DNA of 62,617 nt, the filler included, from Reclinomonas americana ATCC 50394 (Eukaryota), in assembly GCA_048213135.1 (NCBI GenBank). It is 5 parts of 2 records of this genome, joined end to end, with 100 filler letters (N's around TTAATTAATTAA, not from the genome) between each part and the next. Parts side by side here need not be neighbours in the genome. Positions count along the whole stretch, not along the records: positions 1 to 10,629 come from PS015083.1; positions 10,730 to 12,531 come from PS015083.1; positions 12,632 to 43,915 come from PS015083.1; 2 more parts are not named here. One strand, written 5' to 3'. This document shows positions 1 to 34,096 of this stretch, piece after piece; position 1 is the first letter of the stretch, and each line of letters begins with the position of its first letter. Made by a program: the position numbers and the translations under genes. The notes under the pieces were generated by a model. That model saw only the letters and a list, made by a program, of their open reading frames with translations, ran no database searches and was not told the origin of the DNA.

Positions 1-3000
1 ACCACCAATCTCGTGATTGGTACTCTGTCGACTACCGATGCCAACTCTGGCCAGTCGTTCACGTACACGATTGTGGGTGGTGCCGATGCGGCGCTGTTCA
101 ACATCTCTGGTGCACAATTGCGCATCACGACAGCGGGACAGAATGGAACTGGCTTGGTGGTGATTGTGCGGTCGACAGACAACGGCAGTGGATCGCTGTT
201 CTTCGACAAGACGTTTACGATCAACGAGGGTCCGTGTTCCTACTTGGCAAAGTCTTCATTCCTCAACTGTTTCTCACTTTGTTGCCTCTTCTCGCTGTCC
301 AGTGAATGTCGCACCAACGGACATTGCTCTGTCGGCGACGACGTACACGCCGCCGACCACCACTAATCTTGTGATCGGCAATCTGTCCACGACGGATGCG
401 AACTCGGCGCAGTCGTTCACATACACGATTGTTGGCGGAGCGAATGCGGCCATGTTCAACATCTCTGGCGCGCAGCTGCGGTTCACCTCAGCCGGGCAGT
501 CAGGCAGTGGATTGGTGGTGATTGTGCGATCGACGGACAACGGCAGTGGATCGCTGTTCTTCGACAAGACGTTTACGATCAACGAGGGTCTGTGTCCCTA
601 CTTGGCAACGTCTCCATTCCTCAGCTGTTTCTCACTTCTTTGCCTTCTCCCATCGATCAGTGAATGTCGCACCAACGGACATTGCACTGTCAGCGACGAC
701 GTACACGCCGCCAACTACTGCCAATCTCGTGATTGGCAGTCTGACGACAACCGATGCCAACTCGGCTCAGACGTTCACGTACACGATTGTTGGTGGAGCG
801 AACGCGGCTTTGTTCAACATCTCTGGTGCACAATTGCGCATCACGACAGCCGGGCAGAATGGATCTGGCTTGGTGGTGATTGTGCGATCGACGGATAGCG
901 GTGCATCACCTCTGTTCTTCGACAAGACATTTACGATCAACGAAGGTCTGCTCTCTAGTTTGTTGCCTCTTGCTGACTGCTTCTAACTTCCCTTCTTCTT
1001 TTTCTGTTCAGCGAATGTTGCACCGACGGACATTGCGCTGTCGGCGACCACATTCACACCACCGACCACCGCCAACGTCGTCGTGGGCACTTTGTCCACC
1101 ACAGATGCCAACTCGGCTCAGATATTCACGTACACAATTGTGGGTGGAGCGAATGCGGCCATGTTCAACATCTCTGGCTCGCAACTGCGCATCACGACAG
1201 CTGGTATCAGCGGTAGTGGGTATCAAGTGACTGTGCGATCGACGGACAATGGTGCGTCCCCGTTGTTCTTCGACAAGACGTTCACCATCGACGAAGGTAT
1301 AAGAGCAGTTCTGCGATCGCATTGATTGCAATAATTGACTCAATGAGTGCTTCATCGCCCGCAGTCAATGTTGCACCGACGGACATCGCTCTGTCGGCAA
1401 CGACGTACACGCCGCCAACCACTGCAAACCTCGTGGTGGGCACACTGTCCACAACAGATGCCAACTCGGGCCAGTCATTTACGTACACGGTTGTGGGTGG
1501 AGCCGATGCGGCTATGTTCAACATCTCTGGCGCGCAGCTGCGCATCACAGCCGCCGGACAGAATGGAACTGGCTTGGTGGTGATTGTGCGGTCGACTGAC
1601 AACGGTGCATCGCCGCTATTCTTCGACAAGACATTCACAGTCAGCGAAGGTATTGTTATGTTGTCAAGTCTACAACTACTTCAGTAGTGCTGAGTTCTGT
1701 GGGCAGTGAATGTCGCCCCCACCGGCATCACGCTGTCGATGCCTGCATACACGCCACCGTCCACAGCCAATGTGGTTGTTGGTTCGCTGTCAACGACGGA
1801 CGCGAATTCGTGCCAGACGTACACATACACGATTGTGGGCGGAGCCAATGCGGCCTTGTTCAACATCTCTGGTGACCAGCTGCGCATCACTGCTGCCGGA
1901 CAGACGGGCAGCGGACTGGTGGTTATTGTGCGCACCGCCGACAGTGGCAGTGGGTCGCTGTTCTTTGACAAGACATTCACGATCGATGAAGGTACGGCAA
2001 TTGTTGTCACGCATTGCTGTTTTTCTGTTGTGTCAACAAAGCTGCAATTATGTCTTTGCTGCGCAGTCAATGCTCCACCGACCGACATTGCACTGTCGGC
2101 GACGACGTACACGCCGCCAACCACTGCCAACCTCGTGATTGGCAGTCTGACGACAACCGATGCCAACTCGGGCCAATCGTTCACGTACACAATCGTGGGC
2201 GGAGCGAATGCGGCCATGTTTAACATCTCTGGTGCACAATTGCGCATCACGACGGCCGGTCAGAATGGAACTGGCTTGGTGGTGATTGTGCGATCGACTG
2301 ACAACGGCAGTGGATCGCTGTTCTTTGATAAGACATTCACAATCAACGAAGGTCTGCTCTCTAGTTTGTTGCCTCTTGCTGACTGCTTCTAACTTCCCTT
2401 CTTCTTTTTTTGTTCAGCGAATGTTACACCGACTGACATTGCGCTGTCGGCGACGACGTATACGCCGCCGACCACTGCCAACCTTGTTGTCGGCACTCTG
2501 TCGACCACCGATGCCAACTCGGCTCAGACGTACACGTACACTGTTATTGGCGGAGCCGACGCGGCCATGTTCAACGTCTCTGGCGCGCAGCTGCGCATCA
2601 CGACAGCGGGGCAGAATGGAACTGGCTTGGTTGTGATTGTGCGGACGACTGACAGTGGCAGTGGATCGCTATTCTTCGACAAAACATTCACAATCAACGA
2701 AGGTACGTGCTTGGACGTTTTGTCGTGTATCTGCTTGGGCACTCATTGGTTTGCAATTGCAGCCAATATCGCGCCCACGGACATCATGCTGTCGATGCTG
2801 GCATACACGCCGCCATCCACAGCCAACATGGTTGTTGGCTCGCTTTCGACCACCGATGCCAACTCGTGCCAGACGTACACGTACTCAATTGTGGGTGGAG
2901 CGAATGCGGCCGTGTTCAACGTCTCTGGCAACCAGCTGCGCATCACTGCGGCAGGGCAGACGGGCAGTGGACTGGTGGTTATCGTTCGCACCACCGACAG

Positions 3001-6000
3001 TGGCAGCGGGTCGCTGTTTTTTGACAAGACGTTCACGATCGATGAAGGTACGGCAACAAAATTTCATTGGGTTGTTGCGTTCGGCGACTTATGAAGCGTT
3101 GCGAATGACCCACAGCCAACGTCCCTCCATCTGATATTGCACTGTCGGCGACGACGTACACGCCGCCGACTATCGCCAACCTCGTGGTCGGCACACTGTC
3201 CACCACAGACGGCAACTCGGCGCAGACATTTACATACTCGGTTGTGGGCGGAGCGAATGCGGCCATGTTCAACATCTCTGGCGCGCAGCTGCGCATCACG
3301 ACGGCCGGGCAGAATGGAACGGGCTTGGTGGTGATTGTGCGATCGACTGACAGCGGCAGTGGATCGCTGTTCTTCGACAAGTCATTCACGATCAATGAGG
3401 GTCTGTCTGTTTTCTTTTCTCATGCTGGTTGATGTTCTCACTTTCTTGCCTATTTTATCGTTCAGTGAATGCTGCTCCCACGGACATTGCTCTGTCGGCG
3501 ACGACATACACACCACCGACCACCGCCAACCTTGTTGTTGGCAGTCTGTCGACAACAGACGCCAACTCGGCTCAGACGTTCACGTACACGATTGTTGGTG
3601 GAGCGAATGCGGCCATGTTCAACATCTCTGGCGCGCAACTGCGCATCACAACTGCTGGTCAGAATGGAACAGGGCTGGTGGTGATAGTGCGGTCGACGGA
3701 CAGTGGCAGTGGATCACTGTTCTTCGACAAGACGTTTACGATCAACGAGGGTCTGTGTCCCTACTTGGCAGCGTCTCCATTCCTCAGCTGTTTCTAACTT
3801 TGCCTTCTTCCATCGATCAGTGAATGTTGCACCGACCGACATTGCACTCTCGGCGACGACGTACACGCCGCCAACCACTGCCAATCTCGTGGTAGGCAAT
3901 CTGTCGACAACAGACGCCAACTCGGCTCAGACGTTCACGTACACGATTGTGGGTGGAGCGAATGCGGCAATGTTCAACATCTCGGGCGCGCAGCTACGCA
4001 TCACGACAGCGGGACAGAATGGAACTGGCTTGGTGGTGATTGTGCGATCGACTGACAGTGGCAGTGGATCGCTGTTCTTCGACAAGACATTCACGATCAA
4101 CGAAGGTTTGTCTGTGCTCCTATATGGCAAGTTCTCCATTTCTCAGCTGTTTCTCACTTCCTTGCCTCTTCCCGCTGTCCAGTTAATGTCGCACCGACCG
4201 ACATTGCGCTGTCGTCGACGACGTACACGCCACCGACCACCGCCAATCTCGTGATTGGCAATCTGTCGACAACAGACGCCAACTCGGTGCAGTCGTTCAC
4301 ATACACGATTGTTGGCGGAGCGAATGCGGCCATGTTCAACATCTCTGGCGCGCAGCTGCGGTTCACCTCAGCCGGGCAGTCAGGCAGTGGATTGGTGGTG
4401 ATTGTGCGATCGACGGACAACGGCGTCGGATCTTTGTTCTTCGACAAAACATTTACGGTCGACGAAGGTCTTTTGAATGACGTTGCACATGCTTGTTCGT
4501 GCTTGTTGGTCTCATGCGTTGTTTGGCAGTGAATGTGGCGCCGACGGACATTGCGCTGTCGGCGACGACGTACACACCGCCAACCACTGCCAATGTCGTT
4601 GTCGGTAGTCTGTCCACGACAGACGCCAACCCGGGCCAGTCGTTCACGTACACGATTGTTGGTGGAGCGAATGCTTCCATGTTCAACATCTCGGGTGCCC
4701 AGCTGCGCATCACGACAGCCGGTCAGAATGGAACTGGCTTGGTGGTGATTGTGCGATCGACAGATAATGGTGCATCACCTCTGTTCTTCGACAAGACATT
4801 TACGATCAACGAAGGTTCGTATTATCTTGAAGCAGCGTGTTCTCAGATGCGGTTTCTCATTCGCCCGGTTTCTTTTGTTCAGTGAATGTCGCACCGACGG
4901 ACATTGCACTGTCGGCGACGACGTACACACCACCAACCACTGCCAACCTCGTGATTGGTAGCCTGTCAACGACCGATGCCAACACGGCGCAGACATTCAC
5001 GTACTCGATTGTGGGCGGAGCGAATGCGGCCATGTTCAACATCTCTGGCGCGCAACTGCGCATCGCAACAGCGGGTGTCATCGGTGATGGGTATCAAGTG
5101 ACCGTGCGATCGACTGACAGCGGCAGTGGATCGCTGTTCTTCGACAAGACATTCACAGTCAACGAAGGTGTGTTGCCACAAGCAATCTGCAAGTGACTTT
5201 ACTCATCATATGTCTCACGTACGTGTCGTGTGCAGTGAACCTTGCGCCGACGGACGTTGTGCTTTCGTCGGTGACGTATGCGCCGCCGACCACTGCCAAT
5301 GTCGTGGTGGGCACTCTGTCAACCACGGATGGCAATTCGTGTCAGACTTACACGTACACGATTGTGGGTGGAGCGAATGCGGCCATGTTCAACATATCTG
5401 GCGCGCAGCTGCGCATCACAGCAGCCGGTCAGAATGGAACTGGCTTGGTGGTGATTGTGCGATCAACCGACAGCGGCAGTGGATCGCTGTTCTTCGACAA
5501 GACGTTCACAGTCTACGAAGGTGCGTACTTGTAGACCATGGTTGTGTTCTTACGCTTGTCCGCTCATCGACACACGATTGCAGCCAATGTCACGCCCACG
5601 GACATCGCGATATCGATTGCGGCGTACACGTTGCCGACGACTGCCAACATGGTTGTGGGAAACCTGTCGACGACTGATGCCAATTCATGTCAGACGTACA
5701 CGTACACGATTGTGGGCGGAGCCAATGCGGCCTTGTTCAATATCTCTGGCGACCAGCTGCGCATCACTGCGGCCGGACAGACGGGCAGCGGACTGGTGGT
5801 TATTGTGCGCACCACCGACAGTGGCAGTGGGTCGTTGTTCTTTGACAAGACCCTTGTCATTGACGAAGGTACGGCAATTGGTGTCACGCTTTGTTGTTTC
5901 TGTTGCGTCAGCAAAGCTTACACCGCTCTTGACGATGAGTAGTCAATCTTCCTCCGACGGACATCGCACTGTCAGCGACGACGTATGCGCCACCGACCAT

Positions 6001-9000
6001 TGCCAATGTCGTGGTGGGCACTCTGTCGACGACTGATGCCAATTCGGCGCAGACATTCACGTACACGATTGTGGGTGGAGCCAATGCGGCCATGTTCAAC
6101 ATCTCTGGCGCTCAGCTGCGCATCACGACAGCCGGGCAGAACGGAACGGGGCTGGTGGTAATTGTGCGAGCGACAGACAATGGCGCATCACCTCTGTTCT
6201 TCGACAAGACATTTACGATCAACGAAGGTTCGTATTATCTTGAAGCAGCGTGTTCTCACATGTGGTTTCTCTATTCACTCGTTTTCCTTTGTTCAGTCAA
6301 TGTTGCGCCGACGGACATCGCACTGTCGGCGACGACGTACACACCGCCGACCACCGCCAACCTCGTGATTGGTAACCTGTCTACAACCGATGCCAACACG
6401 GCTCAGACGTTCACGTACACGATTGTGGGTGGAGCGAATGCGGCCATGTTCAACGTCTCGGGTGCCCAGCTGCGCATCACGATAGCTGGGCAGAATGGAA
6501 CCGGCCTGGTTGTGATTGTGCGATCGACAGACAACGGTGCATCGCCATTGTTCTTCGACAAGACATTCACGATCAACGAAGGTCAGTCGCCGTTTGCTTC
6601 ACACATTACCTGCCGTTCTTACCCAGTCACCTTCTTCTATCGTGCAGTGAATGTGGCGCCGACGGACATTGCGCTGACATCGATGACGTATGCACCACCG
6701 TCAACAGCCAGCGTTGTCGTCGGATCGCTCTCGACAACCGATGCCAACTCGTGTCAGACGTACACGTACACGATTGTGGGCGGGGCGAATGCTGCTTTGT
6801 TCAACGTCTCTGGCGACCAGCTGCGCATTACTGCAGCCGGACAGACAGGCAATGGGCTTGTGGTTATTGTGCGCACCACCGACAGTGGCAGCGGGTCGCT
6901 GTTCTTTGATAAGACGCTTGTTATTGATGAAGGTACGGCCAGGGTAGTCTCACGAGTTGTCACACCGTTCGAAGAGGCCTCATCGTTTGTCGTACATTTG
7001 TAGCCAACGTTCCCCCAACGGACATTGCGCTGTCGTCGACGACATACACGCCACCGACCACTGCCAATGTCGTGGTCGGCGCTCTGTCGACAACCGATGC
7101 CAACTCGGCTCAGACGTACACGTACACGATTGTGGGCGGCGCGAACGCGGCCATGTTCAACATCTCGGGTGCCCAGCTGCGCATCACAACAGCTGGGCAG
7201 AATGGAACTGGCTTGGTGGTGATCGTGCGATCGAGTGACAGTGGCAGTGGATCACTGTACTTCGACAAGACATTCACAATCAACGAGGGTCTGTCTGTGC
7301 TCCCAGATGGCGAGTTCTTCATTCCACCTGATGTTCTCACTCTTTTGCCTTCTTCCATCGATCAGTGAATGTTGCACCGACGGACATTGCTCTGTCGGCG
7401 ACGACGTACACACCGCCTACCACCGCCAATCTCGTGATTGGCAATCTGTCGACAACCGATGCCAACTCAGCACAGACATTCACATACACGATTGTGGGCG
7501 GCGCGAACGCGGCCATGTTCAACATCTCGGGCGCGCAGCTGCGCATTACGACAGGCGGTCAGAATGGAACCGGCTTGGTGGTGATTGTGCGATCGACAGA
7601 CAACGGCAGTGGATCGCTGTTCTTCGACAAGACATTCACGATCAGCGAAGGTTTGTCTGTGCTCCTATATGGCAAGTTCTCCATACCACCTGATGTTCTC
7701 ACTCCCTTTCCTTCTTACATCGATCAGTGAATGTTGCACCGACGGATATTGCGCTGTCATCGACGACGTACACGCCACCAACCACTGCCAATCTCGTGGT
7801 AGGCAATCTCTCCACGACGGACGCCAATTCGGCGCAGACATTCACATACACTATCGTTGGTGGGGCGAATGCGGCAATGTTCAACATCTTGGGCGCCCAG
7901 CTGCGCATCACGACAGCCGGTCAGAATGGAACTGGCTTGGTGGTGATTGTGCGATCGACAGATAATGGCGCATCACCTCTGTTCTTCGACAAGACATTCA
8001 CGATTAACGAAGGTTCGTACTGTCTTGGAGCTGCGCATTCTCAGATGTGCTTTCTCATTCGCCCGTTTTCATGTGTTCAGTGAATGTCGCACCGACTGAC
8101 ATTGCACTGTCGGCGACGACGTACACGCCGCCAACCACTGCCAATCTCGTGATTGGCAGTCTGACGACAACCGATGCCAACTCGGCTCAGACGTACACGT
8201 ACACGATTGTGGGTGGTGCCGATGCGGCGCTGTTCAACATCTCTGGCACACAGCTGCGCATCACAACAGCCGGCCAGAATGGAACTGGGTTGGTGGTGAT
8301 TGTGCGGACGACTGACAGTGGCAGTGGATCACTGTTCTTCGAGAAGACATTCACAATCAACGAAGGTCTGCGGCGTCATGGATCTCGTTGTTCTCGCTTT
8401 CTTCACTCACTGTTTCGTTCTTCCTTGTTGACCAGTCAACGTTGCACCAACTGATGTTGTGCTCTCGGCTGTGACGTACTTGCCGCCGACGACTGCCAAC
8501 CTTGTTGTGGGAGATCTATCAACGGCGGATGCCAACTCGTGTCAAGCATTCACATACACGATTGTGGGCGGAGCGAATGCGGCCATGTTCAACATCTCTG
8601 GCACGCAGCTGCGCATCACGACAGCCGGTCAGAATGGAACTGGCTTGGTGGTGATTGTGCGATCAACCGACAACGGCAGTGGATCGCTGTTCTTCGAGAA
8701 GACATTCACGATCAACGAAGGTGTGTGCTGCTGTAGATCTGTGTTGTGCATGTGTCTGGTCACTCATCGACTACCATTACAGCCAATGTCATGCCCACGG
8801 ATATCACGTTGTCGGCAACACAGTACGCGTTGCCGGCCACCGCAAATATGGTTGTTGGTGTGCTATCGACAACGGACGCGAACTCGTGTCAGACGTACAC
8901 GTACTCGATTGTGGGCGGGGCGAATGCTGCCTTGTTCAACATCTCTGGCGACCAGCTGCGCATCACTGCGGCTGGGCAGACGGGCAGCGGACTGGTGGTT

Positions 9001-12000
9001 ATTGTGCGCACCACCGACAGTGGCAGTGGGTCGCTGTTCTTTGACAAGACGCTTATCATTGACGAAGGTACGACCAAGATAGTTTTGATTGAGTTGTTGT
9101 TGCGTTTGGCGACTTATGAAGCGTTGCGAATGACGCATAGCCAACGTCCCTCCGTCGGATATTGCACTGTCGTCGACGACGTACACGCCGCCGACCACTG
9201 CCAATGTCGTGGTGGGCACTCTGTCCACAACAGACGGCAACTCGGCGCAGACATTCACATACTCGGTTGTGGGCGGAGCGAATGCGGCGATGTTCAACAT
9301 CTCTGGCGCGCAGCTTCGCATCACAACTGCTGGGCAGAATGGAACCGGCTTGGCGGTGATTGTGCGATCGACGGACAGCGGTGCATCACCTCTGTTCTTC
9401 GACAAGACATTCACGATCAACGAAGGTATGTTTTTGTGTTCTCTTTTTTCCTGCTGACACGGTTCTTATGCGGCGCATTGTAGTGAATGTTGCACCGACG
9501 GACATTGCACTGTCGGCGACGACATATACACCACCGACCACCGCCAATCTTGTGATTGGTAGCCTGTCAACGACGGATGCCAACTCGGCGCAGACGTTCA
9601 CGTACACGATTGTGGGCGGAGCGAATGCGGCCACGTTCAACATCTCTGGTGCCCAGCTGCGCATCACAACTGCTGGGCAGAATGGAACTGGTTTGGTGGT
9701 GATTGTGCGGACGACAGACAGCGGCAGTGGATCGCTGTTCTTTGACAAGACATTCACGATCAACGAAGGTCAGTTGCTTGTTTTTGTTATTCGCGTGTAT
9801 GCTTCTCTAATGATAACACATCTCCTGTAGTGAATGTTGCGCCGACGGACATTGCGATTTCGTCTGTGACGTACTTGCCGCCGACCACGGCCAATGTGGC
9901 CGTCGGTTCGCTTTCCACCGTGGACGCGAATTCGTGTCAGACGTACACGTACACGATTGTGGGCGGAGCGAATGCAGCCATGTTCAACATCTCTGGCGCC
10001 CAGCTGCGCATCACAACAGCCGGACAGAATGGAACTGGCTTGGCGGTGATTGTGCGATCGACGGACAGCGGCAGTGGATCACTGTTCTTTGACAAGACCT
10101 TCACGATCAACGAAGGTGTGTTTGATTACTCTTTTTAGTGTTTTGTATGATTACGCCGTAATCCCCGTTTCGATGTTTCTGCATTGTAGGAAATGTTTCG
10201 CCGTCGGATATTGCTCTGTCGGCGACGGCGTACACGCCTCCGACCACGGCCAATGTCGTGGTGGGCACTCTGTCAACGACCGATGCCAATTCGGCTCAGA
10301 CGTTCACGTACACGATTGTGGGTGGAGCAAATGCGGCCATGTTCAACATCTCTGGCGCTCAGCTGCGCATCACGACGGCTGGACAAAATGGAACCGGTCT
10401 GCTTGTAATTGTGCGATCGACAGACAATGGTGCATCACCTCTGTTCTTCGACAAGACATTTACGATCAACGAGGGTTCGTATTATCTCGGAGCTGCGTGT
10501 TCTCATCTGTGATTTCTCATTCGCTCGTTTTTTCTCGTTCAGCGAATGTTGCTCCGACGGACATTGCACTGTCGGTGACGACATACACGCCGCCAACCAC
10601 TGCCAACCTCGTGATTGGTAACCTGTCGANNNNNNNNNNNNNNNNNNNNNNNNNNNNNNNNNNNNNNNNNNNNTTAATTAATTAANNNNNNNNNNNNNNN
10701 NNNNNNNNNNNNNNNNNNNNNNNNNNNNNCTTCCTACTTACCGATCTATGGTTCAGTGAATGTCGCGCCGACGAACGTTGCCTTGTCGGCCACGACATAT
10801 ACGCCACCGAGCAGCAGCAACATGGTCGTCGGCACACTTTCGACCACAGACGTGAACTCGAACGAGTCGTTTTCGTACACGATCGTTGGCGGTGTGAACG
10901 CAGGCATGTTCAATGTCGTGGCCAACCAGTTGCGCATCACATTGGGCGGACAGAATGGCACTGGCCTGGTGGTCATTGTGCGGTCATCCGATCATGGATC
11001 GTTGTTCTTCGACAAGACGTTTACCATCAACGAGGGTTTGTGTGTGCTTTCGTTTGCGTTGACAATTATTTATCTCTTTCGTGACCTCCGACAATTGTCG
11101 CTTCCCACCAGTCAATCTGGCGCCGGCAGATATCACATTGTCGAATAACATGTTTGCAACACCGTCGCTGGCGAATGTGGTTGTCGGCACACTTGGTGCT
11201 GTCGACGCCAACAGTGGGCAGGTGTTCACCTATACAGTTGTTGGTGGGACAGACGGCAATCTGTTCAACATTGCTGGCTCGCAACTCCGTGTGACGAATG
11301 CCGGAGTCAGCGGTAGCGCGCTGTCGGTAATCGTTCGGGCGACAGATAATGGCGCAGGGACGTTGACGCTGGACAAGACATTTTCGATCAACGATGGTTT
11401 GTGCGATTCTTGTTGCAGAAGCGCCGTGGTCACACGCTTACGCATGCATGTTCTGTTCACGCACTGAACAGCTGGCACGGCGGTGGACGTCACATTGTCC
11501 AGTGCAACTTACATGCCGCCGTCGACCGCCAATCTTGTGGTTGGCACACTGGCGGTCGTGGGTGGCGCGAATGGACGGACGTACACGTTCTCCGTTGTCG
11601 GCGGCATCAACAGCAACTTGTTCAACATTTCTGCAGCACAGCTGCGAATCAGCAGTGCCGGCATCAATGGAACCGGCCTGCAGGTGGTGGTTCGTGCGGC
11701 CGTCAACGGAATGGCATCGTTGTATTATGACAAGTCGTTTATTATCAACGAAGGTGTGTAGCATGTGTGTACTGCTTGCTTTCTTGTTTCTCATGTCCAT
11801 GCCAGCCAACGCGGTGCCGACGGACATTATGTTGTCGAGCGACACGTATGTTCCGCCGGCGGCGATGAATGCGGTGATCGGGACGCTGAGTATGGTGGAC
11901 GCCAACTGCTGTCAGACGCCAAACTTCAGCGTGGTTGGCGGAGCAGACTTTGACAAGTTTGGAATCGCGGACAATCTGCTGGTCGCTCGTGTGGCTGGCG

Positions 12001-15000
12001 GATTGAGGGGGTCGAATTTGGAGGTGACGGTGCAAGTGAATGACGGCTACAGCGTGTTCCAGAAGACGTTCTACATCAACGAAGGTTTGGTGACTGACAG
12101 AAAAACGAAACAAGTGAGCCCTCACCAATGTGCGCTCACCTTTATGCTGTAGATGCGATTCCCGCGTCGAGCATCGCGATATCTGCCAGCACATTCTCGC
12201 CTGGCGCCACTCTCAACAGTGTGGTGGCGACGCTGTCGCCAGTTGGTGTCAACTGCTGTCAGTCGTACACGTACTCGATTGTGGGTGGGCCTTCCGCCGG
12301 CAATTTCGTGGTCGTTGGCAACGAATTGCGATCGAATGTGGCGGCGCTGACGGGCGATAGCCAGACCGTGACGATTCGTATCGATGACGGTACAGGCAAT
12401 ACGTACGATCAGACGATTGTGCTGAACGAAGGTGCGTTGTAATGCGAGTGCATTTCTTTTGCACGGGTTGAATATGTGCTGATGTTGTGTGCTGTGTGTA
12501 CACAGCCAACACGCCGCCAACGGCCATTTCANNNNNNNNNNNNNNNNNNNNNNNNNNNNNNNNNNNNNNNNNNNNTTAATTAATTAANNNNNNNNNNNNN
12601 NNNNNNNNNNNNNNNNNNNNNNNNNNNNNNNGTAGTGCCGCAACCGCCGACGGACATTTCTCTGACGTCGCTCACGTATGTGCCGCCGACGGCTACGACG
12701 GATTCCGTCGTTGGCGTGTTGAGCGGGACGGATTCCAACCCAACCGATTCGCTGACATTCTCAATCGTGCCTGGTGGCAACGCGGCGCAATTCTCGATCG
12801 TGAATGGAAATCAGCTGGTGTTGCACGGTGCCAATCAAGCCGGCAACGCACTGTCTGTGACGGTGCGTGTGACGGACGGCAATGGCAACACATTTGACAA
12901 GACGTTTACGGTCAACGAGGGTGAGTTATGGGGATGTATGGGTGGATGTGTTGTTGTTGTGGAAGGATTGGCTGACGTGTATTTACTTTTGTCAGCGAAC
13001 GTGCCGCCGAGTAATGTCAGTTGCAGTGCCGCGACATTCACACCGCCTGTTGCTGCGGGTACTGCAATCTGCACGCTGTCGACAACAGATGCTAATTGCT
13101 GCCAGTCGTTTACGTACTCCATCACGGGTGGAAGCGACAGCTCCAAGTTTGCCATTGTTGGCAATCAGCTGGTGGCAAGCGCTGCCGTTGGTGGTGTGTC
13201 GGGCAACGGACTGCAGGTGACCGTCACTGCCAATGACGGGAATGGCGGGTCTGTATCGAAGACGCTTGCATTCAGCGAGAGTTGCGTCGCTGCACGCTGA
13301 CCGTTGTCGCTGCACGCTACTCGTGAACTCATAAGGTGCGGTTAACTTGAACACTAGGGAACGTGCCGCCGACGGACATCCAGTTGACAAGCGCGACGTA
13401 TACCTCGCCAACAACCGCTGCGAATACGGTGGTGGGCGCGCTGAGTGCGACTGACGCAAACTCGGGTGATTCTGTGACGTACTCGATTGTGCCGGACCCG
13501 AATTCGCCTGCAGTGTTTGGCATCGTGGGATCCCAGTTGGTGCTGCTTTCTGCCGGACAAGTGGGCTCGAATCTGAGTGTGACGGTCCGCGCAACGGACA
13601 GCAGCGGAGCCACACTCGATAAAACGTTCACTATCCACGACGGTGTGTGTGTGTGTGTGTGCATGTGTGCCTGTGGCGATGACAAAGAGAGTTCCTCATT
13701 CTGATTCCCTATGTGTTTTATTTCGCTCTCGCAGCTCCGTCAGCTCCAACAGACATTAGCCTGTCGAGCACAACGTACACAGTGCCGACGGTGTCCGCCA
13801 ACACTGTGGTGGGCGTGCTGACGACGGCAGACGTCAACACGCAAGAGACATTCACCTATGCGATTGTGGGTGGAGCCGATGCTGCGGCCTTTGATATTGT
13901 TGGCGGCAATCTTGTATTGCGGTCGGCAGGCGCGTCGGGCACTGGCTTGCAGGTCAACGTGCAAGTGACGGATTCGAATGGATTGCAGTACACCAAGAGC
14001 TTTGTGATCAACCAAGGTAAGCGTGAGGTCGGTGCCAGGACAGGGCGACGAGCCAACGCGTCCTCACTCCTGTGGCCCCATTGTGCGCAGCAAACTCACC
14101 TCCGACATGGATCAATCTGACGAGCACGAGTTACACGACACCGACTGCCTCACCAAATGTCGTGGTGGGGACATTGAGTGCTGTGGACGGTAATTGCTGC
14201 CAGACGTACACGTATACGATTACGGGAGGCGCACAGCAAGCGCTCTTCAACATTTCCGGGTCACAACTGCGGCTGAATGCAGCCGGCCAGACGGGAAACA
14301 ACCTCGAAGTTGAGGTGCAGGTGGACGACGGCAACGGAGGCACGTATCGGCAGACGTTCTTGCTCTCTGAAGGTGAGAGTATCCGTGCGCATGTTCACGA
14401 CAATGCGACAGCGTGTTGCCTTCATGCTCACACCGAGGTGTGCCGTCGTCTTGTGCACAGGCAACGGCAACGCGACCGATATTCTTCTGTCAAACATCCA
14501 ATACACGCCGCCGACGGCCACACCAGGTNNNNNNNNNNNNNNNNNNNNNNNNNNNNNNNNNNNNNNNNNNNNNNNNNNNNNNNNNNNNNNNNNNNNNNNN
14601 NNNNNNNNNNNNNNNNNNNNNNNNNNNNNNNNNNNNNNNNNNNNNNNNNNNNNNNNNNNNNNNNNNNNNNNNNNNNNNNNNNNNNNNNNNNNNNNNNNNN
14701 NNNNNNNNNNNNNNNNNNNNNNNNNNNNNNNNNNNNNNNNNNNNNNNNNNNNNNNNNNNNNNNNNNNNNNNNNNNNNNNNNNNNNNNNNNNNNNNNNNNN
14801 NNNNNNNNNNNNNNNNNNNNNNNNNNNNNNNNNNNNNNNNNNNNNNNNNNNNNNCCTTGCACGTACAGGGAATGTGGCGCCGACTGCCGTGAGCTTGTCG
14901 GCGTCCACGTACACTCCTCCGACTGGTGCAGCGCACGCCGTCATTGGCACTCTGTCAACCACAGATGCAAACACGGGCGACTCGTTCACGTACCAGATCG

Positions 15001-16464
15001 TGGGTGGAGTGGACAGTGCGCTGTTTGAGATTGCCGGCTCGCAGCTGCGGTTCGTGGCGGCCGGTCAGCGCGGCAGCAACTTGAAGGTTGCAGTGCAGTC
15101 TACAGATGCTGGTGGCGCCAAATATGCACAACTGTTTACGATCAGTGGCGGTGAGCTTGGTTTTGCGTGCTGTAGCGAATGAGCTCATGTTCAGCTTACA
15201 TGTGTTGTTTCCCTGCTCGCGTGCATCCCGCTGTCCATTGCAGCGACTCTCGCTCCGACGGACATTACGCTGTCGGCGGCGCAATATGTGCCAGCGACCG
15301 GACTTAGCAACGTGGTCATAGGCGTGCTGTCAGCAACGGACGTCAATGCACAGGACGCCTTCACGTTTTCGATTTCCGGTGGTCCCGATGGCGCACTGTT
15401 TGACATTGTTGGATCCAGTCTGGTGCTTCGCAACCCACAACTCGCGGGCGATAACCTGCAAGTGACTGTGCGAGTTGCAGACAGCTCGGGCAATGCATTC
15501 TTCAAGACGCTGACTGTCAATCAAGGTACGTGTTTCTGTAATGCGTGTTCGTGCGCGGCTGTACCTTTTGTCTCATGTGCCTTCGCCTGCTTTGCAGCCA
15601 ATGTGGCTCCGACGGATATTTTGCTGTCTTCGACACGATACGCACCACCCCTCGCCACGGGGTCGACTATTGGCCTGCTGAGCTCTGTGGACGACAATTG
15701 TTGCCAATCGTTTGTGTACTCGGTTGTCGGTGGCGCCGACCAGGCCAAGTTTGCGATTGTCGGCAACGAGTTGCGGTCAGCCGTGGCCGGCTTGACGGGC
15801 AACAATCTGCAAGTGCAAATCCAGACAAACGATCAGCATGGTGGCACGCTGACAAAGACATTCACTATCAACGAAGGTGTGTGGGGGGTGCGCGCGTGAT
15901 GCTTTTCGGTTGCAAGTGTAGCTTAAGGCCACGTGTGACGCAGCCAATGTGGCGCCGACCAACATCTCGCTTTCGGCCAGCACATACACGGCACCGACGG
16001 GCGCGGCGAATGTGGTGGTCGGAACGCTGTCTGTCACCGACGCGAACACTGGAGACTCGCACGTGCTGAGCTTGGTGGGTGGTACGGACATGGGCCTGTT
16101 CAACATTTCGGGGACATCGCTGCGCATCAGTGCGGCCGGTCAGCGGGGATCTAGTCTGCGAGTGATTGTGCGTGCACAAGACAGCGGCGGCGCGACAGTG
16201 GACAAGTTGTTTACGATTGTGGACAGTTGCGCTGGCGTAGACGTGGGTGAGGGTGGTGGGTTGTCGATGCGCTTACTGTGTGTTTCCCTGTTGAATCCAA
16301 CAGCACCGACGGCTCCGACGGACATCACCATCACGGGACTAACGTACCTGCCGCCGACCGCCACAGGCAATGTGATGATTGGGTCGCTGGTGGCAGTGGA
16401 CAGTAACTCGACGGACTCGTATGTGTTCTCTGTGCCGCCCATGTCGCCAGTGGACATTGTCGGT
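1..16464 (+). repeat. Tandem array of cadherin-like domain exons (43 complete + 5 partial), period about 345-365 bp
   Basis: Exons are 279-285 nt (e.g. 303-587, 661-945, 1012-1296 ... 15944-16225) and encode VNVAPTDIALSATTYTPPTTANLVVGxLSTTDANSAQTFTYTIVGGANAAMFNISGAQLRITTAGQNGTGLVVIVRSTDNGSGSLFFDKTFTINE. They are separated mostly by 57-80 nt (up to about 93 nt) phase-1 GT-AG introns. Confidence 0.95.
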
Positions 16465-19400
16465 NNNNNNNNNNNNNNNNNNNNNNNNNNNNNNNNNNNN
16501 NNNNNNNNNNNNNNNNNNNNNNNNNNNNNNNNNNNNNNNNNNNNNNNNNNNNNNNNNNNNNNNNNNNNNNNNNNNNNNNNNNNNNNNNNNNNNNNNNNNN
16601 NNNNNNNNNNNNNNNNNNNNNNNNNNNNNNNNNNNNNNNNNNNNNNNNNNNNNNNNNNNNNNNNNNNNNNNNNNNNNNNNNNNNNNNNNNNNNNNNNNNN
16701 NNNNNNNNNNNNNNNNNNNNNNNNNNNNNNNNNNNNNNNNNNNNNNNNNNNNNNNNNNNNNNNNNNNNNNNNNNNNNNNNNNNNNNNNNNNNNNNNNNNN
16801 NNNNNNNNNNNNNNNNNNNNNNNNNNNNNNNNNNNNNNNNNNNNNNNNNNNNNNNNNNNNNNNNNNNNNNNNNNNNNNNNNNNNNNNNNNNNNNNNNNNN
16901 NNNNNNNNNNNNNNNNNNNNNNNNNNNNNNNNNNNNNNNNNNNNNNNNNNNNNNNNNNNNNNNNNNNNNNNNNNNNNNNNNNNNNNNNNNNNNNNNNNNN
17001 NNNNNNNNNNNNNNNNNNNNNNNNNNNNNNNNNNNNNNNNNNNNNNNNNNNNNNNNNNNNNNNNNNNNNNNNNNNNNNNNNNNNNNNNNNNNNNNNNNNN
17101 NNNNNNNNNNNNNNNNNNNNNNNNNNNNNNNNNNNNNNNNNNNNNNNNNNNNNNNNNNNNNNNNNNNNNNNNNNNNNNNNNNNNNNNNNNNNNNNNNNNG
17201 CTTGCGCTGCCGTCGGCGAATGTGGAAGACATGGCTGCCATTCAGTGCACACTGGAGCCTGTGATCAACTCGATTGCGCATCGCACGGTAGCCAGCCTGG
17301 TCAGTATTTCTTTCGATGGAGGCAGGTAGAGAGAAGCATCTGTCACTGACCTACGATGATGGGACTTGCTGAGCGCAGACGGGCAAGCAAGGGGCCGTGG
17401 AAGTGGATACACCATCGTTCACGTTGCGAGCGCAGAAGCTGGATCCGTCGGTGACGTCGACGACAAGTGGCGTGTACTCGGGTGAGAAGAGAGCACTCCT
17501 ATGTCTCTAATGTGTGTGTGGAGGCTGACTTCAGGACACGTACACGTGCATGTAGTCACTGTGGAGTCGTTGGCGTACTTGAACAGCACGAGCGCGCTCA
17601 GCACTCCGCTTGTGATGCTACCACATGGTATTACCAAGCGATACGCCGGTGCGTGCTAGGCGTGAAACGCATGAGAGTGTGACGTCATTGTGCTGACACC
17701 AATCGCACGTGATATAGGAACGGAGGACCTGTTTTATGCGCTCGTCGAGGTATGCAGCCGCCCTTGTGTGTGCAGCTTCCTTGACGATAATATCCTAACG
17801 TGTGCGTGCTTCGGGGTATCATCAAGGTGGGTTTCAAGGGTGCGCCGATCGTCAACGCCACCAATGACTATGGCAGGCAATCGGCACCTGTAAAGGTGTA
17901 CGCGTTCAGCATCCAGGTGATCCTGTCGCCACTCGATTTGTGCTGCTTCGCATTTCTTACTGTCTCTTTCGTGCCTGTTCACAACCGAGTAGAGTTATCG
18001 ATCGGCTGTGGGTGTGCAAGATGAGCCGGAGCCCATGGTGCTTATTGTCCCCGAGTGGCAAACCACTGTACGCAAGTACAACTCGACACTGTCCAACATC
18101 GCCATGTGCATGATGCAGAACTGCTCGCAGTCAGGTGTGATGCGTACTGTGCGCTTGTATGACCAATGAGCAACGCAGTTTCTCATGCATTTTGCCCTTG
18201 ACGGATGACAGTTGCAAGCGAGTACATTTTCAATGTCACGACCAAGGATCCGACGGTGCTGGAGGTGCCNNNNNNNNNNNNNNNNNNNNGAATACCTGGA
18301 TTCCGCTGTGTGTGGCACGCGACGTGTGCAAAGCCGGGAACCGAGTGAGTGCCAGCGGACTGAGTACATATCTACTGGTGGACCCGATTGCTCGAGGAGA
18401 AAAGCCACATGTTTGTCGTTGGTTGTGTGCCATCACAAGCGATGCCGTTCGATGGCTCACCTGCGCCTGTGTTTTTTTCTTCCCTATCTGTCGATGCAGG
18501 TGTCTGGCGTGTACTGTGCAACAACTCACCTTACTGATTTTGTTTCGTCCCTGCTCGTTAGCGAAGATTCCTCACTTTTTGTCCGTTCTGCTCACGATTA
18601 TTTGGCGCACGTGTAGACTCTGGACCTGTCCATCGTGCCGGGCTTCAACTTCTTCGCTGGTGGTGCAACCTTTATTGGAGTGGGCAGTCGGCTGGGCCTC
18701 TTCCTCAGCCCCACTTTCATTCTTCTGAGCACGTACTTTGCACTTGCTGTGGCGGCGTGCATTGTTGTGTGGAGACTTGATCGTGCAACAGATAACGAGG
18801 TGCGTACTGGAACCACATCGTGGTGAGAGTACGTTTGAGCATCTGCTGACTGGAATACATGTCGTCACCACAGCAACGTGTGCTGCAGCAGACGCGCCTG
18901 ACGAATATCCTCCGCCTTGCTGACGTGACGGCACAGCAAGTTGCCGCTGCAGAGTTGATGAAGGGATTGCACGAAGGAGCGCCGGACGCGTGCAGTCCGA
19001 AGTTGGAGGAGCGTGCAATGCGCCACAAGCGAGGATGGCTCAATGTGAAGAGAGGACTGGAGGTGGTCCGAGCCCTTCATGGCCAGGGCAGTGTAGCTTC
19101 CAGCGCTCAACAGGAGGAGGCATACGATCCTGTGTTGCCAGTCAAGCCCACTGGCAATCCATCGCGACGTTCGTATTTGCCACCACTTGTTCGTGCAACT
19201 GCAGAGGTAGATCAGCTTTGTTCGCATCATGCGTGAGAGACGGTTTTACTGATGCTACGTGTTTGTTGGGCACAGCAGCCAGTCGTTGATTCGAATCACG
19301 GACAGCGTACTGCCCCAAGCGACGACTTGCGTGAGGAAGGACCACTGTTCCTTCCCGGACAGACATCCGAGAGTGTGGATAACTCGGTTCTTCACTTTGA

Positions 19401-22400
19401 GGACCACTGGCGCTCTCATCGTCCTCGCCCAGCTGCTGTTCCGCTTCCTCAGCACCCTGTTTGGTCAACACCACGTCTCGGCGACGATGATAGAGGAGGG
19501 GCTGCTGGTGACGGTGCGGATACCCAAGCTCTTGCCGAGGGGTCTATGGTTCCAAACACTCGTGTCACGGAGGACATGCCATGTGCGCCGGAGGCGCCGA
19601 GCGTGCCAGGCCCGTCTGCTGTGCCTCTTCATCGACGGCGGCGGGAGAGATTCGGCCTTGGTCGCCGCCGTCGCTCGCTTTCGCTGGGTCACGAGATTCT
19701 GTCTGCGGTGCGGCCAACAGTCGCAGTCCTCCACTTTGTCCAACGTGACTGACGTGCTACCTGCAGAAAAATCCTGCTATCCAGCTATCTGAACGTGCTG
19801 TTAGTCCTGGTGCCGCGTCTAGTTCTGGTTGGAGCAGAGGTTCGGGACGATGGCATGATGTCATTCCGCTGGCTTCACTGGCCACAACTCCGGCTTCAGC
19901 ATCTACGCGAAACGTTGGGGATATCCCTGTTGCCGACAGCGAGAACCAGCACCGTCCGGGTGCCGCTCTCCGTCGCTTCCAGGCACTCGTCCGGTTGATC
20001 ATCGCCATTCGCCGCACTCGATCGCTGCGTGAGCGTGTGCTGGATCGCCTCTCGTCAATGTGGCGTAATCATCTGTGGATATCGGCCGCCGTCGAACGCG
20101 GCCGTTCGTCGCGTGTGCGCCGGCTGGACAAGGTGTTGGTGAGTAAGAACAAATGAGTGGTTGTTCTGTGAATGTGTGAGCCAACTCCCCGCTTGCCACA
20201 GTTGCTCTGGGTGTACGTGGTCTGCGCTTGCTGCGTCAACGCAGCCGTGGCGACCTCGTCAACAGGAAGCATGTTGCTGACGTTGATGCAAGTTCTTAAT
20301 GTGGCCGTCATTGGTACGTTTGGTGTTCCTCTGTTTCCAGAATGCAGACCTGATCATGACAGGATATTGTTCTCCTTGGTTACTATGTAGGCGCTGTTGT
20401 TGCCTTCCCTTTGATAGTCGTCATTGGAGTCATTTTCCATCTGACTCCCCGTCGATCCGGATCTGCTGCGTTGGATGCGGAACACTTTGGTTGCGTTCTC
20501 GGGTGTGGGTTAGTGGAAATCAACCGCACCAGATGACCTCACGTTGCTGCGCAATTGGACGTATGCACACAGAGTCGGTGCTCCTCACGCAAACGAAGGC
20601 GTTGGCCGTGGACAACCAGGCTCCCGTGTCACGAGTCATTGATGTGTCCGAGCTGTCTCCGTCAGGGAGCGGTGGCGGCGGTGGGGTGAGTGAGTTGTGT
20701 TGCGGCGCAGCATCCTGATATATGTCAGCTCACCGTGCTGCTTTTATTNNNNNNNNNNNNNNNNNNNNNNNNNNNNNNNNNNNNNNNNNNNNNNNNNNNN
20801 NNNNNNNNNNNNNNNNNNNNNNNNNNNNNNNNNNNNNNNNNNNNNNNNNNNNNNNNNNNNNNNNNNNNNNNNNNNNNNNNNNNNNNNNNNNNNNNNNNNN
20901 NNNNNNNNNNNNNNNNNNNNNNNNNNNNNNNNNNNNNNNNNNNNNNNNNNNNNACGGAGAACTTGAGCTGTGCGAGCGGAAAGAGGATTGATTGTAGGAT
21001 GAGAGTGTCGACAGCCAGACTCAGGAAAAGAAAGTGGTTATGAAGAACAGGCTGAGAAGAGGAGAAGAACAAACAGTGGGTCTGAAATTGTGTTGGCCAA
21101 AGAGAGAGGGCGATTGTGAGCGAATGAGCGAGACGCAAGATGCCGAAGAAGTGTTGCGGGCCAGAGACGCAGTAGAGGAAGGAAGGGGTGTGCGCATGTG
21201 TCCGAAAGTGTGGAGAGCCAGAGCCGTGCGTGGGGTGTTCCTATCGCGGATAGCGGAAAGAGGAGTGATTGTAGGATGAAGGAAGAGTGTCGACAGTCAG
21301 AGAGTGGTCGTGAAGGACAGGCTGCTGCGTTGGGAATGTGTTCGAGGCAGCCAATGCTGGGAAGAGATTTTCTGTGTGTATACTCAACCGGGTTCTGTCG
21401 CATTGCAGCCCGCCGCCCACGTGTACAAGCCCGTCAAAGAGGTGCATCTGCAGCATGTTGCGGTCGGCCATGACACGGTCCTGGGATTCGGCGTGGGACT
21501 GCATGTTGTGCGAGCAGTGGAGGGCGTGTCGGCGTATGCTGCAGTTGCGCACCCGTCAAAAGAGCTTGCTGCGCGTGTGTGCGTGGACGACGTGTGAGCT
21601 TACAGTCGTCGATTCTACTCGTTTGTCGCAGCCCGTACTCGGCATGCAGGCGTCTCCATCGCTGGTCGTGCTTGATCGCGTGCTCTTTGTCAACTGCGCC
21701 AAGACAGTTGAGACTGATCCGACGCTGAGCGACGCGAATGCAACATCAGCCGTGTCTGTGGAGCGACGCGGCGGCACCACCGAGAGCACCCTCTTGCTTC
21801 CACACGGCGCAGCATACGGAAAGGAAATTGTGGCGCAAGTGGAAGGCGGCAACGCTGCCGGCTCGTCCATTGCGCAGCTGTGGCGTCGTGCTCTGCGGCG
21901 CAATTTGCCGTTCGCTTTCAAGATTGCTGGTCGCCTTATGTGTGTCATTTTGGCCGTGGCCATGTCGGTGGCCACCGTGACTACCATCACCAAATTCCGC
22001 ACTCAAGAGGAGGACATGGCGGTGGTGAGTATTTCATGTGGGCGCGAGAGTGGAAGGAGAGGGAGAGGGAGAAGGAGAGGGAGAGAAAGGAGAGGGAACT
22101 CCTCTCTTGCTCTCAAAGTCTCATGCTGCCAATCTATCTCTCTTCTGTGCAAGCGAAAGACAAGGAGATAGAGCGAGAGAAGCAATGCGACTGACTCACT
22201 GCCGTGCCCTTCTATCCGTAGACTACGTCGTCTCTGTTGAGCGATGTGCTTCATGCACTGGTGCTCGAGCCGGTGTGGTTGATATTGTTGCAAGTGGCGG
22301 CGTGGATGTTGTGGAAGTGGAGATCGTGGCAGCGTCAGAAGAAGCAGCAGGACAGTCAGACACAGCCGCAAGGACTGGAGCCGACACAAACTGAGCAGGT

Positions 22401-22533
22401 GCAACCTGCTGCAGCTGGGGAGGAGCAGGAAGCTGCCGCACGCAGGCAACAAATACAAGAGCAGCATGAACAGGAGAGGCTGCAGCGGCGCCAGCAGGCG
22501 CTGGATCGGTTCCGCACAGGTGTCGTTGCGTGA
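1..22533 (+). CDS. Giant multi-exon cadherin-repeat / GAIN-GPS / polycystin-1-like 5-TM receptor; 5' end outside the window, more than 5000 aa visible
   Basis: 48 cadherin-like exons (1-16464) are followed by phase-consistent GT-AG exons: 17200-17299, 17379-17481, 17556-17648, 17718-17749, 17827-17916, 17993-18134, 18212-18264, 18291-18410, 18500-18541 (VSGVYCATTHLTDF), 18617-18799 (TM1 ..CIVVWRLDRATD), 18874-19206, 19276-19707, 19767-20138 (NHLWISAAVERGRSSRVRRLDKVL), 20202-20313, 20391-20489 (GAVVAFPLIVVIGVIFHLTPRR), 20573-20685, 21409-21576, 21632-22024 (LPFAFKIAGRLMCVILAVAMSV), 22222-22533 (HALVLEPVWLILLQ..stop). Continuity across N-gaps is inferred. Confidence 0.8.
18515..18541 (+). other. 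GPS (GAIN-domain) autoproteolysis motif C-A-T-T-H-L|T-D-F
   Basis: Matches the CxxxHL|TxF consensus of polycystin-1 and adhesion GPCRs, and lies about 35 aa before a hydrophobic TM helix. Confidence 0.85.
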
Positions 22534-23153: not shown

Positions 23154-24960
23154 TCACCAACAATGGCTGGGATTAGCGAGACACCGGTGCATCACAACCT
23201 CGGCGTCCTCGACGATGAAGCAGCGCAGCACCAACTCTGGCAGGCACCGCGAATACAATGCCTCCTCTNNNNNNNNNNNNNNNNNNNNNNNNNNNNNNNN
23301 NNNNNNNNNNNNNNNNNNNNNNNNNNNNNNNNNNNNNNNNNNNNNNNNNNNNNNNNNNNNNNNNNNNNNNNNNNNNNNNNNNNNNNNNNNNNNNNNNNNN
23401 NNNNNNNNNNNNNNNNNNNNNNNNNNNNNNNNNNNNNNNNNNNNNNNNNNNNNNNNNNNNNNNNNNNNNNNNNNNNNNNNNNNNNNNNNNNNNNNNNNNN
23501 NNNNNNNNNNNNNNNNNNNNNNNNNNNNNNNNNNNNNNNNNNNNNNNNNNNNNNNNNNNNNNNNNNNNNNNNNNNNNNNNNNNNNNNNNNNNNNNNNNNN
23601 NNNNNNNNNNNNNNNNNNNNNNNNNNNNNNNNNNNNNNNNNNNNNNNNNNNNNNNNNNNNNNNNNNNNNNNNNNNNNNNNNNNNNNNNNNNNNNNNNNNN
23701 NNNNNNNNNNNNNNNNNNNNNNNNNNNNNNNNNNNNNNNNNNNNNNNNNNNNNNNNNNNNNNNNNNNNNNNNNNNNNNNNNNNNNNNNNNNNNNNNNNNN
23801 NNNNNNNNNNNNNNNNNNNNNNNNNNNNNNNNNNNNNNNNNNNNNNNNNNNNNNNNNNNNNNNNNNNNNNNNNNNNNNNNNNNNNNNNNNNNNNNNNNNN
23901 NNNNNNNNNNNNNNNNNNNNNNNNNNNNNNNNNNNNNNNNNNNNNNNNNNNNNNNNNNNNNNNNNNNNNNNNNNNNNNNNNNNNNNGTGCTCTCCTGCAT
24001 CCGCTGGACAGCCTGCATGGCCGAGCGCGCGGTGGCGAGCTCGGAGTGAGCAAGGCCGCTTGGCGTCGGCCACACTCGTATCGTCTTGTCGTGGCCACCG
24101 GCACTCACAATGTGCCGACCGTCGGGGGTGATGGCGACGGACCACACCCAATGCGTGTGCCCATCCATCCGTCGCACTTGCTCTCCACTCGCCAACGACC
24201 ACACTCGCACAGTCTTGTCCTCACTCCCACTCACAGCGTGTTGCCCGTCGGGAGTGACGGCGACACACAAGACAACGGCAGTGTGCCCCACCAACCGGCG
24301 CATCTCTTCCCCACTCGGCAGTGACCACACACGAATGGTCTCGTCCAGACCCCCACTCACGATGCACTGACCATCGGGANNNNNNNNNNNNNNNNNNNNN
24401 NNNNNNNNNNNNNNNNNNNNNNNNNNNNNNNNNNNNNNNNNNNNNNNNNNNNNNNNNNNNNNNNNNACTAGCCAGTGACCACACCCGCACTGTCGCGTCC
24501 CCACCACCGCTCACAATGTGCTGACCATCAGGGGTGACGGCGATAGACTGCACAGCTCCAGTGTGTCCCACCAGCCGCCGCACTTCCTCCTCCGTCGCCA
24601 TTGACCACACTCGGATTGTCTCGTCTCGGCTCCCGCTCACGAAGTGCTGACCATCGGGAGTCACCGCAACAGAGCGCACCAAATTCGTGTGCCCCTTTGA
24701 CCACCACACTTCCTCGCCCTCCGCCACAGACCACACCCGCACTGCCGCTGCGCGTCCCCGCCTCCGCTCACAATGTGTGCACCGTCGGGAGCAACGGCGA
24801 CACACCACACTCCGTCGGTGTGCCGCTCCCATCGACGCACTCGTGCTCCACCCGCCAGCGGCCACACACGCACTGTGTTGTCATTACTCCCGCTCACAAC
24901 GTGCTGATTGCTGGGTGCGACAGCGACGCACCACACCGGGAATGTGTGTCCCTCCAGAAC
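23154..24960 (-). CDS. WD40-repeat protein (about 7 blades) with a conserved C-terminal tail; apparent frameshift near 24750 (pseudogene or assembly error); first exon not resolved
   Basis: Repeats of GHTxxVxxVAVTPDGQHxVSGxxDxTVRVW follow an acceptor ctctccag at 24961. After a gap the tail reads EEALYSRCLPELVLRCFIVEDAEVV..W*. The frame shifts at GAC GCG CAGCG GCA GTG CGG. Confidence 0.8.
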
Positions 24961-30498: not shown

Positions 30499-30518
30499 NN
30501 NNNNNNNNNNNNNNNNNN

Positions 30519-30622: not shown

Positions 30623-30689
30623 GGTACAGGGCTTCACTGTGACTGATGATCACACTCAAAGTCTGTGATTCTGCAGAGACTGATTGCAT

Positions 30690-30729
<40 letters not shown>

Positions 30730-30792
30730 CACTGCGACTCCTTCTCTCTCTCTCTCACTCTCACTCACTCCCACTCTCTTTGTGTGTCACAG

Positions 30793-34059: not shown

Positions 34060-34096
<37 letters not shown>

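Follow-up and report, generated by a model that had tools for sequence, protein, structure and literature searches.

The window analysed here, a 62,617-base stretch of draft eukaryotic scaffold from Reclinomonas americana ATCC 50394 that contains 28 runs of N, probably carries one very large plus-strand gene, in which at least 48 cadherin-fold domains are followed by a GPS-like site and a five-pass membrane anchor. Specifically, we demonstrate the repeat array with its splicing, the cadherin fold of the repeat unit, an HLT motif, and five hydrophobic helices with basic cytosolic flanks.

An array of cadherin-like repeat exons

The array and the assembly features that interrupt or bound it are as follows.

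1-16464, plus strand: 48 cadherin-like units of 95 amino acids, one per 285-nt exon, with phase-1 GT-AG introns between them (hidden Markov model (HMM), splice check, AlphaFold2 (AF2)/Foldseek, identity matrix)
10630-10729, no strand: artificial join N44-TTAATTAATTAA-N44, which interrupts the array; an identical spacer lies at 12532-12631
16465-17199, no strand: 735-N gap, which separates the last cadherin unit from the juxtamembrane exons

The unit HMM, built from 35 units and searched against the six-frame translation of the window, gives 46 matches, every one of which lies on the plus strand from 1 to 16434; the rest of the translation has no match. Gaps truncate two additional unit starts (about 12505-12531 and 14455-14528), which bring the total to 48, in line with the preliminary description of this DNA, which had reported at least 48 cadherin-like repeats joined by phase-consistent splicing. 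The splicing is likewise borne out: every pair of neighbouring units free of gaps (42/42) can be joined via a stop-free phase-1 GT-AG intron of 52-101 nt, and at the 5' junctions all 29 of 29 introns are GT-AG, 57-77 nt long and in phase 1. The first unit is cut by the start of the window, and the gene therefore extends upstream of it; the last unit is cut by the 735-N gap.

Among the first 28 full units, DNA identity is 67-91% and averages 80%. Because of these differences, which amount to 9-33% of the DNA, the array consists of distinguishable copies, and assembly collapse was rejected as its source. From position 10756 toward the membrane the units diverge, with 37-57% protein identity to the unit at 6296-6580. 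Separately, a higher-order pattern runs through 302-10114 on the plus strand, where units often match best with a partner 9, 11, 13 or 17 units off, and a Cys-containing unit subtype (NSCQTYTY, donor GTACGG) recurs at 1706, 2762, 5583, 6647 and 8782.

The repeat unit has a cadherin fold

With the 28 window units as alignment, AF2 models one unit as a seven-strand sandwich with a pLDDT of 95.1. All of the matches listed in a Foldseek comparison with the PDB (ranks 1-50) are cadherin-superfamily ectodomains with TMq values of 0.56-0.75, the best E value being 1.1e-3, slightly over the 0.001 line of the tool. A profile of the 28 units searched against PDB sequences at E<=1 returns nine matches, all of which are protocadherin-15 or cadherin-23 (9/9; best E 0.0088).

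In Pfam, PF00028 stays under its gathering score (22.9 against 28.8 bits for a three-unit stretch, with diverged units scoring 16.4 and 13.0 bits), Big_9 and He_PIG also appear as sub-threshold matches, and an NCBIfam scan of six units gave no match. The calcium motifs LDRE and DxND are absent from the 28-unit consensus, which reads ...TxAGQxGxGL... at the LDRE place and ...FTINE|xNVAPTD at the joint, and in which only D32, N34 and D79 are near-invariant. We infer where D32, N34 and D79, as well as the LDRE and joint sites, would fall against the cadherin motifs. According to one paper, LDRE together with DxND(N) separates "true" cadherins from bacterial cadherin-like domains (PMC2926784). The earlier identification of the units as cadherins thus stands for the fold, on which AF2, Foldseek and the profile agree, and falls short for the family signature, with PF00028 below its cut-off and LDRE and DxND missing. 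By its modelled structure and its consensus, the unit is best described as a cadherin fold of a bacterial-like, calcium-motif-poor sequence type. An ectodomain length of more than 200 nm, as estimated earlier, presumes stiff linkers, which the unit motifs do not guarantee.

Relatives of the unit were sought with a three-unit query among proteins of 3214-10227 residues at E<=1e-3. This search returned 68 long proteins, 67 of which carry PF00028. Most of the named relatives are bacterial, with 27-39% identity and E values down to 1.7e-295 for repeat-rich proteins; three of the 68 are animal Fat-like or cadherin-23-like proteins, at 26-29% identity. For none of the 68 is PF01825, PF08016, PF01477 or PF02010 listed, and none shows a cadherin array on a GPS with a non-7TM anchor.

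A GPS-like site in a beta-rich juxtamembrane region

The region after the 735-N gap was spliced by hand with GT-AG introns, and its pieces were checked for stop-free translation. The following features were placed in this way.

17201-18344, plus strand: beta-rich extracellular juxtamembrane region, a GAIN-like candidate (manual GT-AG splicing, stop-free translation)
17201-17299, 17379-17481, 17535-17648, 17718-17749, 17827-17916, 17993-18134, 18212-18269, [20-N gap], 18291-18344, plus strand: juxtamembrane exons (manual splicing)
18500-18556 (or to 18580), plus strand: exon with the GPS-like C-A-T-T-H-L-T-D-F (Cys codon 18515, HLT codons 18527-18535)

After splicing, 212 beta-rich residues are followed by the 20-N gap, W-x3-C-x5-C, a 155-nt intron and C-A-T-T-H-L-T-D-F. 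At least 240 residues upstream of HLT are beta-rich, with Cys and Trp positioned near the site, and the 20-N gap hides the residues before the W-x3-C-x5-C. Among the 125,230 six-frame residues of the window, C-x3-HL[ST]-x-F has a single occurrence, just upstream of transmembrane helix 1 (TM1), and the looser HL[ST]xF occurs three times. The distance from HLT to TM1 is about 35-45 residues. In the portion of PMC3321182 that describes them, GAIN/GPS modules have CxCxHLT with two disulphides to upstream Cys residues, and a conserved Trp.

A five-pass membrane anchor

Hydropathy of the spliced C-terminus shows exactly five helices, which are encoded by the following features.

18617-18799, plus strand: TM1 exon; helix at about 18692-18772, ending in WRLDRATDNE (hydropathy)
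18874-20138, plus strand: long cytosolic loop, exons 18874-19208 and 19767-20138, the latter holding HLWISAAVERGRSSRVRRLDKVL (H codon 20070)
20202-20508, plus strand: TM2 exon 20202-20313 and TM3 exon 20391-20508, with a 77-nt phase-1 intron between them
20509-21408, plus strand: second long loop or intron, containing a 205-N gap at 20749-20953
21409-22024, plus strand: loop exon 21409-21591 and TM4 exon 21632-22024 (LPFAFKIAGRLMCVIL...), from splicing and hydropathy
22222-22533, plus strand: last exon, with TM5 (LEPVWLILLQVAAWMLW), a basic stop-transfer stretch and a Q/E-rich tail (TGA 22531-22533)

The order after the stalk is TM1, which ends in WRLDRATD, a long loop, HLWISAAVERGRSSRVRR, TM2, TM3, the second long loop, TM4, TM5 and the Q/E-rich tail. 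Basic cytosolic flanks are found before TM2 (RGRSSRVRRLDK), after TM3 (HLTPRR), before TM4 (WRRALRR) and after TM5 (WKWRSWQRQKK), with a neutral TM2-TM3 link and an acidic TM4-TM5 link. At each helix the flanks conform to the positive-inside rule, which is in keeping with an N-out, C-in five-pass protein. All window strings that the preliminary description had quoted are present after splicing (HLTDF, VVWRLDRATD, HLWISAAVERGRSSRVRR...VNA, VAVIGAVVAFPLIVVIGVIF, LPFAFKIAGRLMCVIL and LEPVWLILL), and VAVIGAVVAFPLIVVIGVIF arises only via the 20313|20391 splice.

A reading of the anchor as a seven-transmembrane (7TM) adhesion G-protein-coupled receptor (GPCR) was rejected, given five helices, two loops of more than 150 residues and no 7TM family match; room for two further helices exists only in 20509-21408. 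Between TM3 and TM4 lies a 28-nt direct repeat of 96% identity (20975-21002 and 21252-21279, spacing 277 nt).

Continuity of the gene and nature of the HLT site

Several observations weigh against a single gene with this layout. Artificial spacers link three pieces of the cadherin array, and the 735-N gap hides the junction between the array and the juxtamembrane exons. Between the HLT and TM1 exons stands an in-frame TAG (18614-18616), and its removal takes an unusually short intron of 36 or 60 nt that ends at 18616. Two loop stretches have no unique model, namely 20509-21408 and 19209-19766, the latter with 1187 stop-free splice paths among which codon-usage coding scores gave no decision. 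At the HLT site itself, Thr at position -2 replaces the second Cys of the canonical CxCxHLT, the Cys at -4 being kept; therefore one of the two GAIN disulphides, as described in part in PMC3321182, cannot form as usual. Pfam GPS (PF01825) gave no match exon by exon, with the motif split by an intron and the 20-N gap. Finally, the C-terminal module has no relative in any database searched.

With regard to continuity, four of the 28 N runs are artificial joins of the form N44-TTAATTAATTAA-N44 (10630-10729, 12532-12631, 43916-44015 and 52742-52841), whose spacers are stops in all frames, are read as contig joins made by the assembler, and give no sequence support for adjacency across them. Such a patchy scaffold, together with a gap that covers the very junction, leaves room for two genes, in which case the cadherin array would end in the 735-N gap and a separate gene for a GPS-like five-pass protein would begin there. 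However, both edges of this gap lie inside open plus-strand reading frames: on the left, a unit breaks off near its residue 52, and on the right, frame 2 is open, which scores best for coding. The cadherin-fold array shares its strand and its scaffold piece with the HLT motif and the five helices. If the gap size is right, about 500 nt would also have to accommodate the remainder of the unit, the end of one gene, and the promoter and signal-peptide exon of the next, and the array would be left without a membrane anchor in the window. We consider two genes improbable, and a single gene spanning the gap very probable.

With regard to the HLT site, if the match were due to chance, the product would lack a GAIN domain and would be a cadherin-like adhesin that stays uncleaved on a lineage-specific multi-pass anchor. 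The missing Pfam GPS match and the incomplete CxC are in line with this, as is the stalk sequence TDFVSSLL, which shares with the TxFAVLM consensus given in PMC12716839 no more than T, F and some hydrophobic positions; nor were homologues found that would reveal conservation. On the other hand, the motif with Cys at -4 stands exactly at the GPS position in its single occurrence in the window, behind the long beta-rich stretch with Cys and Trp near the site. Taken together, a chance match is rather unlikely, and we favour HLT as a genuine GAIN/GPS site. Of the GAIN/GPS module proposed earlier, the HLT motif before TM1 is retained, unique in the six-frame scan; a full GAIN domain, a fold of roughly 320 residues, gained no support from the exon-by-exon Pfam scan, in which the motif is split over two frames and a gap.

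Comparison of the anchor with polycystin-1

The preliminary description had taken the anchor for a homologue of TM1-5 of polycystin-1 (PKD1), carrying the motifs of the human protein. If this holds, the membrane part would be a true homologue of the N-terminal module (GAIN/GPS, TM1, TM2-5) of the polycystin-1/REJ family, fused to the cadherin array, and would have lost, or never possessed, PLAT and the TRP-like channel half. The layout speaks for such a kinship: a GPS-like site directly before TM1, five helices with long, short, long and short loops, and a helical Q/E-rich tail, a loop pattern that we take to match PKD1. Moreover, GAIN domains are reported, in the part of PMC3321182 concerned, only with adhesion GPCRs and PKD1-like proteins, occurring also in ciliates and Dictyostelium, and the layout here is not 7TM.

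At 50489-51187 on the minus strand, a piece of open reading frame (ORF) matches IFT122 in its first beta-propeller (PF23381, E 2.2e-40), which shows that the organism possesses intraflagellar transport and hence cilia or flagella; this, too, counts in favour of a polycystin-type anchor.

Domain searches lend no such support. Pfam GPS, PLAT, REJ and PKD_channel were found in none of 16 exon pieces and none of eight loop-frame pieces. In particular, PLAT (PF01477) is missing from exons 18874-19208 and 19767-20138 and from three stop-free pieces within 19237-19789, and REJ (PF02010) and PKD repeats (PF00801) are missing from the scanned pieces, part of the ectodomain lying in gaps or upstream of the window. 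The TRP-like channel half (PF08016, TM6-11) is not encoded, since the TGA at 22531-22533 follows TM5. Downstream, a WD40-repeat gene lies convergent with the cadherin gene at 23986-24990 on the minus strand (PF00400; E 6.7e-30 and 2.7e-20 for two ORF pieces). With the next gene on the opposite strand, there is therefore no channel domain after TM5, and the 3' end of the cadherin gene is bounded.

Sequence searches gave the same picture. Five C-terminal pieces compared by phmmer with all PDB chain sequences at E<=10 matched no polycystin, only an aldolase and leucine-rich repeat (LRR) repebodies; the PDB copy presumably contains a PKD1 membrane structure. The HLWIS-TM2 piece (read-through of 19767-20312), run with HMMER against 1.84 billion representatives, returned one match, a Cys-rich repeat protein, which aligned only to a low-complexity part and was judged spurious. 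No homologues were found of exon 19767-20138 among proteins of 218-2000 amino acids, nor of the TM4 exon (the region of a long read-through) among proteins of 3214-10227 amino acids. Among metagenome contigs, the TM4 exon gave 446 pattern matches, 0 of them confirmed, and two exons searched in the protein Atlas gave no usable match.

The likeness to human PKD1 motifs was assessed by ungapped BLOSUM62 scoring of six human strings at 946 positions of the spliced C-terminus (917 residues plus X spacers), with 2000 shuffles of each. Three of the six strings match best at the proposed site. Of the 2000 shuffles per motif, 63, 864, 328, 22, 1587 and 1045 scored at least as high as the original; thus two of the six nominally beat the shuffles (63 and 22), the human strings having been picked after the fact, and the other four do no better than shuffled strings. 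A likeness above chance was accordingly not confirmed. The two nominal successes and the three best placements count in favour of kinship; the four failures, the post hoc choice of all six, and the empty domain and sequence searches count against it.

Taken together, Pfam, the PDB search, the representatives and the motif test give the TM1-5 assignment no support, and nothing refutes it. Homology of the anchor to the N-terminal module of PKD1 is accordingly a tentative idea that we hold to be doubtful, and the same grade applies to a complete polycystin-1/REJ N-terminal fusion as set out above. Somewhat less likely still is the more specific picture in which a flagellated protist has a free-standing polycystin-1-type N-terminal module (GAIN/GPS, TM1, TM2-5 and coiled tail), lacking PLAT and the channel half, that carries a bacterial-type cadherin array of record length. 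We prefer to describe the anchor as a lineage-specific module that resembles in topology the first five helices of PKD1/REJ proteins, with a putative kinship only.

Other features of the window

Several features lie outside the cadherin gene.

34774-36880, minus strand: Cys-rich modules C-x-x-P-P-x-x-C-x-x-x-N-C-G-x-x-G-x-C...W, apparently one per exon, with a faint EGF_Teneurin match (E 0.021)
27815-30499, plus strand: 895-codon stop-free frame with 62% G+C and no Pfam match; a gene or a chance frame
30650-32200, 34010-34600, 49430-50370, 52440-53300 and 56700-57500: CT/GA and CA/TG microsatellite-like tracts

Judged from their sequence, the modules at 34774-36880 look like a second gene for a surface protein built of repeat exons. 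The microsatellite-like tracts translate as SLSLSL, THTHTH or RERERE and occupy much of the intergenic space.

Discussion

The predicted product may act at the cell surface in adhesion or as a tether, with a multi-pass anchor holding its long ectodomain. An active HLT site would mean that the protein is cut into two fragments that remain attached; a pull on the ectodomain could then uncover the stalk (TDFVSSLL) and make it accessible to the helix bundle, in the manner of adhesion GPCRs and polycystin-1. The cytosolic loops and the tail might pass the signal onward, and the protein may do its work in cilia or flagella.

Among known layouts, the nearest are those of the animal seven-pass cadherins and of the PKD1/REJ family. 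Besides 9 cadherin repeats, CELSR proteins have EGF, laminin G and HormR domains; their 7TM domain is of family B and has short loops. Like the window gene, CELSR/Flamingo proteins place cadherin repeats before a GPS-type site and a multi-pass membrane domain, and the logic is likely the same, with an adhesive ectodomain coupled to a helix bundle. Distinct from them, the window gene has at least 48 repeats, no other recognisable domain, five helices and two long cytosolic loops. With PKD1/REJ proteins it shares the GPS-like site just before TM1, the N-out multi-pass topology, in which TM1 leads into a long cytosolic loop, and the helical Q/E-rich tail, whereas PKD repeats, REJ, PLAT, PKD_channel and any detectable sequence similarity are missing, and the ectodomain is cadherin-like. 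Sea urchin REJ proteins have 1-11 TM segments, PLAT in only half of them and, in many, a coiled coil at the end (PMC1934368), and such looseness of the family likewise speaks for the kinship.

For the ectodomain, the nearest sequence relatives of the unit are the giant bacterial cadherin adhesins, which carry PF00028 with PF17803, PF17963 and others. They share the N-x-A-P-T-D type of joint and lack LDRE and DxND, the bacterial side of this comparison being taken from part of PMC2926784. The adhesins are secreted or outer-surface proteins of prokaryotes, free of introns, whereas each window unit is a separate phase-1 exon of a eukaryotic gene and the array leads into a five-pass anchor. Fat, Dachsous, cadherin-23 and protocadherin-15 share the fold and very long tandem arrays, and provide the best structural and profile matches; in contrast to the window gene they are single-pass proteins with calcium-binding linkers, and metazoan sequence matches are more distant, at 26-29% identity. 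Metazoan long cadherins have up to 34 repeats. Oomycete and choanoflagellate cadherins are likewise cadherin-domain proteins outside animals; they differ in having 2-17 extracellular cadherin (EC) domains with LDRE and DxND present, and the relevant part of PMC2926784 mentions no GPS or multi-pass anchor. In the portions of the literature searched, we found no description of cadherin repeats on a polycystin-type anchor, or on a GPS with a non-7TM anchor.

Because its units are nearest to bacterial adhesin repeats and yet each forms a phase-1 exon of its own, the array is a clear case of the amplification of a bacterial-type domain in a eukaryote in the style of exon shuffling. At least 48 cadherin folds joined to a GPS-like site and a five-pass anchor would represent a third way to wire a long adhesive ectodomain to a helix bundle. 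Should the anchor be PKD1-like, the gene would offer a natural polycystin with the receptor half only, available for study. If so, the "receptor" half of PKD1 would be an independent evolutionary module that was fused to various ectodomains and, in animals, to a TRP channel, and receptors that combine cadherin repeats with a GPS would have arisen more than once.

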